Assembly: GCF_030013205.1 (NCBI RefSeq)
Contig: NZ_CP122648.1
Strand: one strand, 5' to 3'
DNA: 64,000 bases
From: Escherichia coli
GTDB lineage: Bacteria > Pseudomonadota > Gammaproteobacteria > Enterobacterales > Enterobacteriaceae
Made by a program: the position numbers. Of the stretch, positions 1 through 6,000 are shown piece after piece; within the stretch, counting starts at the first letter, position 1, and each line of letters begins with the position of its first letter.

Positions 1-3000
1 TTGTTTGTGAGTACGACCATCCTGCACACACATCAGGCGAATTTCGTTTGCCCATGCTGTCCAGTTCGGTTCTTTGGGACGAACCACCTCGCCGTCACAT
101 TCGGCGGCCTGCTCGTACAGGGCGATGATTTTTTTCCAGAGCCACTGTGCGCAGGTCAAATCATCCTGCGTTCCCCACTGGCGCTTTTTAGGGCTGAATA
201 CAACCGCATCAGGATGGCGAGTTAAAAACTCCTGTTCAGCCGTTTGCGTGTCCGGTTGCGAAGCGTCCGGACGAGAAGAGGTTTTATTCTCTGTAGTAAT
301 CTCTGTTGTATTCTCTGTAAGATCATTGGGCCATTTTGACCCGATGACAGCGTGTCGTTTTGAACCAATGGATCGTGTCATTTTGCGCCCATCCATCAGG
401 TCACTTTGACCCGATGGAGAAGTGCATTTTGACCTGATGGATTCGTTCACTTTGACCTCTTCTAAAAGCTCACTTTCATAGTTGATCGTGTAGAAGTTGG
501 TCATGTCACGCTTCGATTTATTGAGTTGCTCGCGACGCAAAACCCCAAGTGATTTCAGGCTTGCAAATGTGCGTTTCAGAGTGGACTCTGACCAGAACGG
601 AAACTGCTCCAGCCACTGTTCTGTCGTGTTATAAACCCAGCGAATTCCGCCATGCTCAGTGCCTGAATTCGTTTCATTCAGCCAGTAATGAAGCTGCTGC
701 AACACAATTGCCTCATTCAGACCAATACGGCATGCAAGATCACGATTTATCACAATGGGCTGGGATGTCATTAACAGGCTCATGACCGACCTCTATTTCC
801 CTGAATTTACGACGAAACTGTTCGAGCGGACTGAAGCATTCATGTTCATAGCCTTCACGGAGGTAGATAACCCGTTGTGTTTCCGGCTCCCAACGAATGA
901 CTCTGACGGGCACTCCGTAGTGATCTTTGAACCAGCGGTTAACTTGTCGCAAAGGACTGTCTCCTTCTGCCGGTTGAAATCACCCACAGCCCACTCTGCA
1001 AAGCTGTGGGTTACAATTTCCCTGTCACCTGGTACATTCACTGCATAGCAATACTCCACCTTCGCTTTTCCACCCGGTACAGGAAGCGCAATCAGTTGCG
1101 AGCGACGGTAGTGTGTTGTTAAACTGTTCATGCGTTAGTTTCTCCACAACCAGAAGCAATCGACGCCACGACGCCCGGAGCTGCACACTCGCGGGCGTTA
1201 CTCTTTTCCGGCGCACAAAAAACACGAAATAACAGTGTTAAATGCTCCTGCCACTTCGCCATTACTTGGTAGCTGTTCTCTTCGATTTGCTCACGCTCAG
1301 CCTGGTCAATAACTCCATCAGCAGTTGCCTTGCGTAAGTACTGGGAATGCTTGCCAATCCATTCTATTGACTCCATCAGCCGCTGATTAATGTCACCATT
1401 GTCAATGTCATCAATGACCACCAGCGGCACAAACACCCCATTACTACGACGGGCTATTGCATCTGTTACATGCCTGGTACCACTGGCATCCTGTAAAACC
1501 ATGGCCCACTCAAGTGGAAAAATTTGATCCCCACCGCTACGCAGTCTGTTATGCAATTGATCTTTTGCTGGGGTGATATCATCAGATTTATACAAACCAA
1601 GAATTTCTGCTGCTTCCTCATAGCCATGAGGTAAATCAGCAATCGTTCTTCGTATTGCTGCCACCAGCCATGCTGGTTGTTTATCAACTTTCCATTCAGG
1701 TTCTTTACCCACGGTTAATTCCTCATTTCTGTGGTGTTTTTATGCCGCAGCACTGTTAGTCTTTTGATATAAAGACACGTCAACTTTCAGTTTCCCGTTA
1801 GTAATTTTTTCTAACTGGTACGCTCGGCCTTCAGGAATAATCTCAGGCCACTCTGAAACAGACGGATGCTTAATACCTAGGGCTTCGGCGGTTTTACAAA
1901 CTCCGCCGAAATAATTAATCACGTCGGATTTCCGCATTTCTGTCTCCCGTTAAATTACGTCAAGCAGGAATGTAGGATATCCAACATGCCAATGTCAAGA
2001 ATCCTACATTGGCATGTGGTAGGATTGCCTACATGATGAACATGAGTGATCGTATTCGCCAAAGGCGAAAAGAACTGAACCTGACACAACAAGCACTGGC
2101 TGATTTGACTGGTGTGAACCGTGTCACGGTTACTGGATGGGAAAAGGACGACTACCAACCAAATGGAGCCAACCTTCAAGCCCTAGCCAACGCACTTAAA
2201 TGCGATCCTCTGTGGCTTGTTAGCGGAAAAGGCTCGCCTGAACCAAAGATAAATCTAAAACCTGAAATATTCGCAGTTAAAAAAGTCCCCCTCATCTCGT
2301 GGGTTCAGGCGGGTTCATGGACAATGACGGAGCCTGGTGTCAGGAAAGAAGATGCTGAAGAGTGGGTTTATACTACCGCCCTTGTATCAGAAATGGCATT
2401 TGCACTACGGGTCCGTGGTGATTCAATGACCAATCCCCTCGGCTCACCATCGATACCAGAAGGTTCTATCGTTATCGTAGAGCCAGATATTATTGATACA
2501 GAGTGTATTAACGGAAAAATCGTTGTTGCCCATATCAATGGTGGGCAAGAAGCGACACTCAAAAAATTTGTTGAGGACTGGCCGAACAGGTATCTCGTCC
2601 CACTAAATCCTAACTATAAAACTATTGAATGCGGTGAGAACTGCAGAATAGTTGGTCTTGTCAAACAAGTAATAATGGATTTTTGACACATCTTCCTCAC
2701 TATCGCAAAACCGGGGTATCCCCGGTTTTTTTATGAGCCTATCTTTTTATGTAGGATAACCAACATAAACTCTTGACACCTACATGTTGGATATCCTACA
2801 TTTGTTTTTAGAGTTGTGGTGAATGCGCAGGCTGATGCGCGAAAGACATTGCAGCTATTGCGGAAAAGAGCTGTTCGGCGGGGCAATTAAACGCCCGTGA
2901 GAGTCTGAAATAACCGCAAGCCGGAGATCAGCACCGGTCACCACAACAGCCACTGCTTTGGCGGTACCAGTTTGTACACTTGCTTCCGGCTGGTACCGCT

Positions 3001-6000
3001 CTTTTTACAAAACAGAGAAGAGCATCACCGGACGACGGGCTCATAACCCAATCCATCCGGGCGGCTGCCACCGCAGGTGTTCTTCTCTGTTTTGTGGAGA
3101 AACCAACCGGCCTTGCAGGGTCGATATGATGAGGAGCAGCAAAATGGCTAGCGAACGCAGTACTGATGTGCAGGCATTTATCGGGGAGCTGGACGGCGGC
3201 GTATTTGAAACCAAAATCGGCGCAGTTCTCAGTGAAGTCGCTTCCGGTGTGATGAACACGAAAACCAAAGGTAAGGTCTCACTCAATCTGGAAATCGAAC
3301 CGTTTGATGAGAACCGAGTGAAAATCAAACACAAACTCTCATATGTTCGCCCGACTAACCGCGGGAAAATTTCCGAAGAAGACACCACCGAAACGCCGAT
3401 GTATGTCAATCGCGGTGGTCGCCTGACTATTCTGCAGGAAGACCAGGGACAATTACTGACTCTTGCGGTGAACCTGACGGAAAACTCCGCGCAGCAGGTC
3501 GTTAATATCGTTTTTAATAAACTGATTATTTATCTCATCACTGAATATCTTTATATAGTGAGGACTTATTATGTCTCAGAACTTAGACGCAACCGCAATT
3601 AATCAAGTCCATGCCCTTATTTCTGCTCAGGGTGTTAATGAAATTATCAGTAAGATTGGTGCCGATGCTGTGGCATTGCCTGAGAATTTCCGCATTCATG
3701 ATCTGGAAAAATTTAATTTAAATCGCTTCCGTTTCCGTGGTGCGCTTTCCACTGCCAGCATCGATGACTTTACCCGTTATTCTAAAGATCTTGCAGATGA
3801 AGGCACCCGCTGCTTTATCGATGCTGATAATATGCGAGCCGTCAGTGTGCTTAACCTGGGTACTATTGATGAACCAGGTCACGCAGATAACACCGCCACT
3901 CTCAAACTGAAAAAGACAGCACCGTTCTCTGCCCTGTTGTCTGTTAACGGCGAGCGTAACTCCCAGAAGTCACTGGCAGAATGGATTGAAGACTGGGCCG
4001 ACTACCTTGTGGGCTTTGATGCTAATGGTGACGCCATTCAAGCAACAAAAGCGGCTGCGGCGGTCCGTAAAATCACGATTGAAGCAAACCAGACCGCTGA
4101 TTTTGAAGACAATGACTTCAGCGGCAAACGCTCTCTGATGGAGTCTGTCGAAGCGAAAACCAAAGATATTATGCCAGTGGCATTTGAATTTAAATGCGTT
4201 CCGTTTGAAGGTCTGAAAGAACGTCCATTTAAATTACGCCTCAGCATTATCACTGGCGATCGTCCTGTACTGGTTCTGCGCATTATTCAGCTGGAAGCAG
4301 TGCAGGAAGAAATGGCTAACGAATTTCGTGATCTGCTTGTTGAGAAATTCAAAGACAGCAAAGTAGAAACCTTTATTGGTACTTTCACCGCCTGATTTCA
4401 TTACTGCAAATGCCCCTGCGGGGGCATTTATGGAAACGTAATTAACTCAATAATCGCCGGATGGTGCGGGATTCCTTTTACCCGAATTCAGCGCGGTGCA
4501 GCGCATATAAAGTGGAGAACGAAATGTCATTTATTAAAACTTTTTCCGGGAAGCATTTTTATTATGACAAGATAAATAAAGACGACATCGTGATTAACGA
4601 TATCGCGCTTTCCCTTTCAAATATCTGTCGCTTTGCAGGACATCTTTCACACTTCTACAGTGTCGCCCAGCATGCGGTGCTTTGCAGCCAGCTGGTGCCG
4701 CAGGAATTTGCTTTTGAAGCGTTAATGCATGATGCAACAGAAGCGTATTGCCAGGATATTCCCGCTCCACTGAAACGCCTTCTTCCTGACTATAAACGGA
4801 TGGAAGAAAAAATAGACGCCGTAATCCGTGAGAAATACGGGTTACCCCCGGTTATGAGCACGCCTGTGAAATATGCCGATCTCATCATGCTGGCAACCGA
4901 ACGCCGCGATCTCGGGCTTGATGATGGCTCTTTCTGGCCAGTACTGGAAGGTATCCCGGCAACAGAAATGTTCAAAGTTATTCCACTGGCTCCGAGCCAT
5001 GCCTACGGGATGTTTATGGAGCGCTTTAACGAGTTATCGGAGTTACGCACATGCGCATGAATGTTTTCGAAATGGAAGGGTTTCTTCGTGGGAAATGTGT
5101 ACCACGAGATCTGAAAGTGAATGAAACAAATGCTGAGTACCTGGTACGTAAATTCGATGCGCTTGAAGCTAAATGTGCGGCACTGGAAAACAAAATAATA
5201 CCAGTGTCAGCTGAACTGCCGCCAGCAAATGAAAGTGTTCTGTTATTTGATGCTAACGGAGAAGGCTGGCTAATTGGCTGGCGTTCTCTCTGGTACACCT
5301 GGGGACAAAAAGAAACCGGAGAATGGCAGTGGACATTTCAGGTCGGGGACCTTGAAAACGTCAATATCACTCACTGGGCAGTAATGCCGAAAGCACCGGA
5401 GAATAAAAAATGAGCGTGATAAAAACTCATACAGGAATTGTTATCACCCGAGACGGTCCGCAGGTAAAAAAACTGCACCAGACAAAGCGGATGTGGGTCG
5501 TCGGAAAAAACGAGTTTTACCACAAAGAAACCGGACGCCGCCACTTTGCAGAAAATACTCGCCGCCGACTGCTGATCGATACCATCAAGCCTATCGAGGT
5601 GAAGCATGTTTAAACAGAACGAAAAATCTATCGCTCAAATTGCTGAGTACATCCCGCGTGCGTGCCGGGGTATGCAGTTGCAGGAAGCCAAAGCACGCCT
5701 GGAGAAAAAAATTGCGCTCTATATCGATGACGGCTGTGATGCTGCCGTTCTTAACGCGGCGTTCGCGCCAGCTCTTAACAGTCATACGCGAAAGTCTTTT
5801 TTTTCGTGCATCGCAGCGCAGATCTGTAAAGGAGGCAACCAGTGAGTGAAGTTAACTATCAGGCACTGCGTGAGATAGCAAAACAGGCAACACAGGGCGA
5901 ATGGCGTGCATTCATCTCGTCGGACACTGGTACATATGCGGTACATACGCCGGGGTATGACCGTTGTGACGACATTATCAAATGGCCGGGCTTTGACGGC

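Follow-up and report, generated by a model that had tools for sequence, protein, structure and literature searches.

In this study, we analyzed a 64,000-nucleotide (nt) stretch of Escherichia coli DNA (contig NZ_CP122648.1 of assembly GCF_030013205.1; hereafter the window), which contains a lambdoid prophage, and in particular the 333-nt leader (2811-3143) between the PL-like (early-left) promoter of this prophage and yfdP, the first gene of its early-left operon. We found that the leader is composed of three modules on the plus strand: an RNA domain that resembles the small RNAs (sRNAs) STnc100 and PasD, an intrinsic terminator, and a long helix (P1) with a three-way junction at its tip (Table 1). 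The helix and its junction form an undescribed, widespread, and unannotated phage RNA module, and its structure is well supported. None of the three modules was found to be related to the put RNA of phage HK022. As for the function, we see about an even chance that the long helix serves for processing of the RNase III type and thereby releases a tRNA-mimicking junction RNA. The original prediction had read the leader as a put-like, cis-acting antitermination RNA in place of an N gene or, alternatively, as an attenuator. Taken as a whole, this interpretation is partly supported by our results, but its put-like part is not.

Every feature listed in the original prediction was confirmed, with coordinates that agree to within one or two bases. 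The leader folds better than its dinucleotide shuffles. For positions 2811-3143, the minimum free energy is -134.7 kcal/mol, compared with -108.3 +/- 5.7 kcal/mol for the shuffles (z = -4.65; 0 of 100 shuffles as good), and for positions 2955-3143 the z value is -5.96 (0 of 200 shuffles as good). In addition, both stem-loops named in the original prediction are conserved with compensatory base changes. One of them had been described as a perfect inverted repeat of 15 base pairs (bp; 3007-3021 with 3081-3095), and these arms are indeed fully complementary and enclose 59 nt. The repeat extends to 25 nt at 84% complementarity and forms P1. The 5' arm of P1 begins in the U-tract of the terminator, and the 3' arm ends in the conserved UGUGGAGA; UGUGGAG at this end is invariant in the copies that have the same arrangement as the window (type 1). 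In 22 type-1 sequences, P1 is 95% paired, and five pairs are changed on both sides. The conserved U-G and G-U pairs of P1 would be C-A mismatches on the other strand, and thus the structure belongs to the plus strand. Furthermore, Proteus, Providencia, Xenorhabdus, Morganella, and Serratia have helices of 16-31 bp at this position, with unrelated sequences. Of all features of the leader, the long double-stranded helix is thus the best conserved.

At the tip of P1, the hairpins P2 and P3 complete a three-way junction. A covariance model of the junction (R1) gave 84.9 bits over positions 3020-3082, and a search of the window and of the remaining prophage with this model found no second junction. 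Meanwhile, RNAalifold independently predicted P1, P2, and the apical helix. For an alignment across the types of copies described below (A5), a structure that we had specified was tested against 500 shuffles and against slid controls. In this alignment, 93% of the cells are paired and seven pairs are changed on both sides; none of the 500 shuffles was as high, and the slid controls were 38-43% paired. For instance, the 7-bp stem of P2 occurs as CCGGACG/CATCCGG, CCGGGCG/CACCCGG, CCTGATG/CATCAGG, ACGGATG/CATCCGT, CTACCTG/CGGGTAG, and CTGTCTG/CGGGCAG, all of which are paired, and it covaries across three architectures. A junction core of about 21 nt stays constant while the surrounding stems covary.

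Some other readings of P2 were tried and rejected. The CUGAUGA of the type-2 copies might be read as part of a hammerhead ribozyme or a C/D-box RNA, but the bases concerned are CCGGACG in type 1 and covary as part of a helix, and neither ribozyme nor small nucleolar RNA models score. The AC/AAUC internal loop was also considered as a kink-turn or a tetraloop receptor, and neither of them fits. In addition, a 9-nt complementarity of 2731-2739 with the loop (3038-3046), lying beyond the cI terminator and 5' of PL, was judged to be due to chance.

To estimate how common the element is, we used the long hairpin (2996-3106, 111 nt) at a coverage of at least 80% and found it in 2,487 of 5,426 complete E. 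coli genomes (46%), with up to five copies each. These copies are annotated as nothing or as 'hypothetical protein', and the Prokaryotic Genome Annotation Pipeline (PGAP) leaves the site blank. A search of Rfam 15 with the window leader, a type-2 copy, and relatives returned no relevant match, the sole related one being a sub-threshold STnc100 match in the homolog of phage ST64B; we also found no description of the element in the literature. BLAST against phages and complete E. coli genomes revealed mosaic breakpoints in the leader at about 2810, 2931/2939, and 2959. The phages SfV, SfII, SfIV, cdtI, and mEp460 and the Stx2c and Stx2a phages match only from the first hairpin onward, and the element is also present in ST64B.

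Using a pattern scan of viral contigs together with BLAST, three architectures were found. Type 1, the arrangement of the window, is represented by 108 instances, 105 of which have a U-run just 5' and 88 a yfdP homolog 3'; in the other 20 copies, yfdP is not what comes next. Type 2 belongs to Klebsiella phages, where the junction lies in the late leader, 3' of Q, a tR'-like terminator, and the tRNA-Asn and tRNA-Arg genes. Here P1 is a 6-bp acceptor-like stem (GGCCUG/CAGGCC), separated by 6 nt from the CCA of the tRNA before it, and the 3' end is GGCC followed by ACCA or GCCA (RCCA) in 13 of 13 copies. The stem and RCCA are exact in 11 of the 13, with one mismatch in each of the other two. In type 3 (contigs L011 and L060) and in Pantoea phage PA-1, the junction lies 5' of lysis genes, and L060 has a canonical STnc100 about 350 nt 5' of the junction. 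In one phage contig (L009), types 1 and 2 occur together. Furthermore, the junction is kept where yfdPQ are deleted (SfII, L007). The element is restricted to transcripts of lytic growth: PL is controlled by the repressor, and the late copies lie beyond tR'.

The scan above started from the RNA itself. An unbiased sample was taken through the YfdP protein, which gave 39 loci from 39 Enterobacterales species. A hairpin, a run of five to eight T, and a helix of 16-31 bp are present at 30 of these loci, and model R1 found the junction in 22 of the 39 leaders. The comparison of these two numbers indicates that the long helix is the constant part and that the junction is a cargo at its apex. In addition, the junction is dispensable for the operon, since 17 of the 39 leaders are without it. 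The junction is a mobile cargo, which either sits on top of a long helix already in place or lies between tRNA-like ends.

The likeness of the junction to tRNA lies at the top of P2. The match to initiator tRNA (Table 1) covers three G-C pairs and the anticodon loop CUCAUAA, and the structure has the 7-nt loop, U33, purine 37, and closing helix of an anticodon stem-loop. The reference sequence, tRNA-fMet, was found at 100% identity in four copies per genome, annotated as tRNA-Met. Compared with initiator tRNA and with tRNA-like RNAs (the tRNA-like domains of bacterial Y RNAs and the phage tRNA genes 3' of Q), the likeness consists of the anticodon arm and, in type 2, of an acceptor-like stem and RCCA within tRNA arrays. 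However, the anticodon-like stem continues through the AC/AAUC internal loop into a 7-bp helix, and the window copy has a 25-bp stem, no acceptor end, and no CCA. A scan of the window with ARAGORN gave no tRNA, and neither the window copy nor a type-2 copy matched the Rfam tRNA model even at E values up to 10. The junction has neither a D arm nor a T loop, and this is why no tRNA finder or model recognizes it.

The first pattern scan had fixed the core sequence, so the invariance of the core in that scan is a matter of ascertainment. In the sample taken through YfdP, the loop reads CUCAUAA, CUCAUUA, CUCAUUC, or UUCAUAA, and some copies form just two G-C pairs. Three further scans, excluding C34, A35, or U36, returned mostly chance 14-mers; the mycobacteriophage matches among them were rejected as coding sequence with three-periodic variation. 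Intact members confirmed by the model have UAU (L186, L203, and L239), AAU (L249), or CCU (L286, L298, and L310) as the triplet, and the idea of an invariant CAU was rejected because of them. CAU is predominant, with at least 120 loci against at least seven with other triplets.

Similar hairpins were also seen elsewhere. Five short viral contigs have a P2-like hairpin (UGACGGGCU.AU.CCCCAAUCCA) within the first approximately 190 nt, with a covarying lower stem and a hairpin with a UUGCAG-like loop on its 5' side (L176 ~54-80, L179 ~176-258, L180 ~159-187, L226 ~1139-1184 on the minus strand, and L228 ~136-168). These contigs encode mitovirus-type RNA polymerases (for example, the open reading frame (ORF) 462-3200 of L228, with SAATDR and GDD motifs), and neither an Rfam match nor a tRNA was found in them. 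Their resemblance to P2 may be chance, convergence, or shared mimicry. Meanwhile, T-arm-like hairpins (GGTTCGATTCC) occur in the long PL leaders of phiNP (L004 ~2725-2747 and ~2776-2799) and of L009 (~5735-5815), and the leader of Erwinia typographi (L143 2380-2445) has a tRNA-like fold that scores 23 bits with the tRNA-Sec model (E = 0.03).

On the basis of this anatomy and of analogy, we propose that P1 is a processing site for a double-strand RNase, namely RNase III. RNase III processing stems are known from the precursors of 16S and 23S rRNA, the hairpin of the lambda N leader, and the early mRNA sites of T7. Like them, P1 is an almost perfect helix of 20 bp or more, its two strands lying on either side of a structured RNA within a leader that is highly transcribed, and in the rRNA case the cleavage frees the enclosed RNA. 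With 25 pairs in the window and 16-31 bp in relatives, P1 is in the range of RNase III substrates (at least about 20 bp of near-perfect double-stranded RNA). The difference is that cleavage is a prediction here and that the enclosed RNA is just 49 nt long. The upstream sRNA and its terminator hairpin would be cut off from the yfdP mRNA, which would obtain a new 5' end, and cleavage in P1 would release the junction as a small stable RNA. In the type-2 phages, tRNA-processing enzymes presumably release the junction instead. The released junction may then act in trans during lytic growth, most likely as a mimic of an anticodon arm that binds a tRNA-recognizing factor.

Several points weigh against this proposal. 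RNase III cleavage, the release of a small RNA, and activity in trans are all predictions from anatomy and analogy. The assignment of the first module to STnc100 is likewise a tentative one, from a common architecture and a sub-threshold match in a homolog. The window copy is without a CCA end, and no tRNA model recognizes it. CAU is not invariant, and inheritance rather than selection may therefore account for part of the identity with initiator tRNA. Moreover, the 17 yfdP leaders without the junction keep the terminator and the long stem. Finally, the element is located in the leaders of both operons that lambdoid phages antiterminate, which is what would be expected of an antitermination element.

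A more specific proposal is that the junction is a phage decoy of the anticodon arm of initiator (or Met/Ile) tRNA, which would be freed from early and late leader transcripts by RNase III or by tRNA-processing enzymes and would titrate or inhibit a host factor that recognizes this arm. We consider this proposal improbable as it stands. Candidate targets would be a tRNA-fMet-cleaving PIN toxin of the VapC/MvpT type, another defence directed at anticodons, or a component of translation initiation. Shigella and Salmonella, in which SfV, SfII, and ST64B reside, have toxins of the VapC/MvpT type. A previous study showed that an enterobacterial VapC cleaves initiator tRNA (PMC5175351). In addition, phage tRNAs can neutralize anticodon nucleases (PMC10264068, PMC11464382).

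As far as the window copy is concerned, a serious rival is a purely cis-acting long hairpin that stabilizes the mRNA or protects it from Rho. In this case, the hairpin and the junction would stabilize or insulate the early-left mRNA, through 5' protection, blocking of Rho loading on the long untranslated leader, or the rate of translation, and the junction would ride along and do nothing in trans; we think that this is possible, although rather doubtful. The long helix keeps its place even in distant species, where the apices are unrelated, the 333-nt leader is unusually structured throughout, and the element is always in sense orientation just 5' of the first gene of an operon. All of these are consistent with a cis role. 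However, the core of the junction is constant while the stems around it covary. The junction is also found without the long helix and without yfdP, as a tRNA-like gene of late leaders with an RCCA end, and it is retained despite the deletion of yfdPQ (SfII, L007).

The second module precedes P1. The original prediction had placed a terminator-like hairpin at 2961-3006, and we found there perfect 10-bp arms (2961-2970/2990-2999), which make 13 pairs as RNA and are followed by a U-tract. A terminator scan with a loop limit of 8 nt missed this hairpin because its loop is larger. In 22 distinct type-1 leaders, 8 of the 13 pairs are changed on both sides. The stable hairpin with its run of five to eight T stands at the same place in the 30 yfdP loci of different species mentioned above and in 105 of the 108 type-1 copies. 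The stem sequences are very different (for example, GUCGGCGUC...GACGCCGAC in ST64B), and five to eight U always follow. Judging from these sequence comparisons, the second module is an intrinsic terminator that is kept across Enterobacterales by compensatory changes. Because this conserved terminator comes directly after the first module, yfdPQR and the rest of the early-left operon would be expressed by read-through only. The attenuator reading is thus partly supported, in that the first hairpin is a conserved terminator ahead of the accessory operon. A similar order is known from lambda 6S RNA and StxS (PR'-tR'), where a promoter, a structured RNA of about 190 nt, and an intrinsic terminator that is read through come before the expression of the operon. 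However, in those cases the promoter is a constitutive late promoter and read-through depends on Q, whereas here the promoter is PL and there is no known antiterminator. Within the terminator hairpin of many relatives lies an insert that is strongly conserved (...CAACAC(C/T)AGGAGG...GAAGATAATGTTCTG...), just 5' of the U-tract (L003 2955-3000, L128, L140, L149-L152, L156, L159, and L161). Relatives as far apart as Salmonella, Proteus, and Xenorhabdus keep it; the window hairpin is without this insert.

The first module begins at the transcript start of PL and is an STnc100/PasD-like domain according to its architecture, which was recognized as an inverted repeat and by folding; its family membership is below the Rfam threshold. 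Its closing helix (2813-2822/2938-2947) consists of 10 perfect pairs, and within it are a 5' hairpin (2825-2840), central hairpins, and a 3' hairpin (2920-2938). The window, ST64B, contig L015, and the canonical STnc100 of L060 share a common plan: a closing helix (G)UGGUG...CACCA(C), a hairpin straight after GAAU, and, ahead of the closing strand, a CCGG...CCGG hairpin. With the STnc100 family (RF02076), the homolog of ST64B reaches 35.1 bits, below the gathering score of 47 bits, and the window copy has no match in Rfam and does not reach the RF02076 threshold. At least 72 of 105 type-1 copies have an STnc100-like domain ahead of the terminator. STnc100 and PasD have been described as prophage-encoded, Hfq-associated sRNAs that act in trans (bioRxiv 10.64898/2026.05.13.724894). 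The window domain resembles them in the closing helix, the hairpin after GAAU, the CCGG hairpin, and the terminator that follows the module. It differs in being controlled by the repressor through PL, whereas STnc100 and PasD are located in the late region. The module also occurs alone on the E. coli plasmids NZ_CP127257.1 and NZ_OZ547034.1 at 98.5% identity (window 2813-2948), and in the late leader of the Klebsiella phage contig L015 (~6112-6205), 3' of a type-2 junction.

A short Arg-rich ORF in this module had been suggested as a possible remnant of N. A 23-codon ORF with a GTG start does exist, and its start codon is 2819-2821, so that the proposed start at 2821 was the last base of this codon. 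Its coding role was not upheld: it has no Shine-Dalgarno sequence, it lies within the closing helix and the first hairpins of the domain, and the frame runs to a different length in the near-identical module of L015. We judged it to be non-coding and rejected the idea of an N remnant. The absence of N itself was borne out. The ORF scan found no N-sized ORF in the leader, where the only plus-strand ORFs are a 49-codon ORF with a TTG start (2980-3129) and yfdP itself, extended upstream in frame. E. coli ETEC4079 has a prophage with which the window is essentially identical, and in the whole of that prophage no N is annotated and the only antiterminator is a Q-family protein.

The absence of N brings us to put-like antitermination, in which the stem-loops would bind the transcribing RNA polymerase, as put does at the zinc-binding domain of the beta' subunit, and give it factor-independent resistance to downstream terminators. 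In support of this idea, the leader of a phage with no N in the leader or annotated in the prophage contains a conserved RNA structure, and L009 has copies in two different leaders, as HK022 has putL and putR. The put RNA is about 70 nt long, forms a V-shaped pair of stem-loops, and starts from +3 of the transcript (PMC9378689). In the window, that place, straight after the promoter and before the terminator, is occupied by the STnc100-like domain. However, STnc100 and PasD have been described as Hfq-associated sRNAs acting in trans, and putL and putR (L126) align with the window leader at local scores of only 17 and 15, while shuffles average about 17 with maxima of 24-27. The two put sequences align to each other, but to the ST64B and phiNP leaders no better than shuffles. 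Furthermore, the junction is folded from three helices and stands on a 25-bp stem, some 190 nt away from the transcript start. It lies downstream of the terminator and thus cannot be the element that reads through this terminator (it may still affect terminators further downstream), whereas put lies upstream of the terminators it suppresses. The type-2 copies sit in Q-antiterminated transcripts, as tRNA-like genes in tRNA arrays ending in RCCA, and 17 of the 39 leaders keep the terminator and lack the junction. On this evidence, a put-like role is unlikely, and we leave it a low probability. In addition, a 38-nt similarity to HK022 putR was seen at 1393-1430 (minus strand, inside a YmfL-like ORF), with a score of 31 against 27 for the best shuffle. 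It falls within a coding region and is probably due to chance.

Antitermination by Nus factors, as in the rrn operons, was also considered. In the window DNA, CGCTCTTTTTACAA (2997-3010) and TGTGG (3093-3097) are boxA-like and boxC-like with a hairpin between them. As RNA, CGCUCUUUUUACAA would serve as boxA and UGUGG as boxC, and NusB/NusE would load there and aid the formation of the stem. The resemblance is to rrn boxA UGCUCUUUAACAA and boxC UGUGUGGG with their intervening stem, and in rRNA leaders boxA likewise stands beside the 5' strand of an RNase III stem. The invariant UGUGGAG would also agree with such a role. However, the letters of boxA are not conserved, the relatives having CGCCCTTTTT, CGCAATTTTTT, CGACCTTTTT, and CCACCCTTTTTT, and what is kept is the GC-rich end of a stem and a U-run, that is, a terminator. 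The same holds for boxA as GCUCUUUA, for which the window has CGCUCUUUUUA and relatives have CGCCCUUUUU, CGCAAUUUUUU, and CGACCUUUUU. UGUGGAG is conserved because it pairs with the constrained U-tract and ACA, and there is no boxB or N partner. We therefore give this explanation a very slight chance.

A protein-coding explanation has almost no probability in our view. Two ORFs cross the region, the 49-codon plus-strand ORF mentioned above and a 47-codon ORF on the minus strand (2928-3071), and the latter is annotated as a hypothetical protein in mEp460 (Table 1) and in some RefSeq genomes. However, P3 lies inside both ORFs and differs by 1, 2, 4, 19, 21, 23, or 25 nt between relatives, which breaks the frame, and the substitutions are compensatory in helices rather than three-periodic. 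The plus-strand ORF also has a TTG start and no Shine-Dalgarno sequence. The protein-coding reading was rejected because of the non-triplet indels, and the minus-strand ORF is argued to be spurious.

The features of the region are listed in Table 1. Positions 1-9,000 of the window are the immunity region and the early-left arm of the prophage, and the sequence to the right of about 9-11 kb is host chromosome. Three host RNAs above the Rfam gathering score, naRNA4 (22057-22127), STnc430 (35687-35835), and a lysine riboswitch (37730-37926), show that the prophage ends before about 11 kb. On the 3' side of the repressor terminator, the order is the promoter with flanking operator palindromes, the leader, yfdP, yfdQ, yfdR, and further accessory genes. 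The PL-like promoter, predicted at about 2773-2805, was found and is a twin of the cro-side promoter; its transcript starts at about 2809-2811. The operator palindromes bracket its -35 and overlap its -10, and the motif is found again at the cro/cI promoters near 1969-2037. In relatives, the position of hairpin P4 is taken by hairpins of the GGCGG-UGGCAG-CCGCC type, in which the stem sequence varies and the hairpin is kept. The yfdP copy of the window is frameshifted (3144-3602, the ORF continuing to 3602), and the identical gene in NZ_CP122643 is a frameshifted pseudogene in RefSeq. In ST64B, the early-right region (L003 188-376, minus strand) has strong Rfam matches to C4 antisense RNA (80 bits) and isrK (64 bits), which suggests, at the level of sequence matches, an antisense immunity module of the P1/P7 type.

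Table 1. Features of the leader and its surroundings (window coordinates unless another contig is given)
Feature	Position	Strand	Description
cro-like gene	1740-1937	minus	
LexA/cI-type repressor gene	2037-2686		
Terminator of cI-like repressor gene	2707-2735		
Operator-type palindromes	2749-2766, 2784-2801 (2749-2801)		ATGTAGGATAACCAACAT and ATGTTGGATATCCTACAT; 94% complementary
PL-like sigma-70 promoter	2773-2802	plus	-35 TTGACA 2773-2778; 18-nt spacer; -10 TACATT 2797-2802; 10 of 12 matches
STnc100/PasD-like RNA domain	2813-2947	plus	multi-branched
Mini-ORF	2819-2890	plus	23 codons, GTG start
Intrinsic terminator	2960-3006	plus	13-pair stem 2960-2972/2988-3000; U-tract UCUUUUU 3000-3006
Long helix P1 with cargo	3002-3100	plus	arms 3002-3026/3076-3100; 25 consecutive pairs including G-U
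Three-way junction	3027-3075	plus	49 nt, at the tip of P1
P2	3028-3060	plus	7-bp stem; asymmetric AC/AAUC internal loop; GGG/CCC helix; loop CUCAUAA
Anticodon-arm copy	3036-3049	plus	CGGGCTCATAACCC (CGGGCUCAUAACCC); 14/14 nt identical to E. coli initiator tRNA positions 28-41
P3	3061-3074	plus	short hairpin; length and sequence variable
Hairpin P4	3108-3123	plus	short; just 5' of the ribosome-binding site
yfdP start	3131-3146	plus	Shine-Dalgarno GAGGAG 3131-3136; ATG 3144-3146
mEp460_036	L002 3979-4122	minus	47-codon ORF across terminator and junction; annotated protein

The results raise the question of how the N-less phages of this group pass a conserved terminator directly after PL. They also show the leaders of lambdoid early-left and late operons as sets of exchangeable RNA modules, including an STnc100-like domain, a terminator, a putative processing stem, and a tRNA-like cargo. 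Among these modules, the junction is a concrete candidate for a tRNA-mimicking phage RNA that is made only in lytic growth. If the decoy proposal were true, the junction would be the RNA counterpart of the phage tRNAs that neutralize anticodon nucleases. The counter-defence repertoire of phages would gain an RNA-only member if the junction inhibited, or served as a decoy for, a host factor directed at tRNA.

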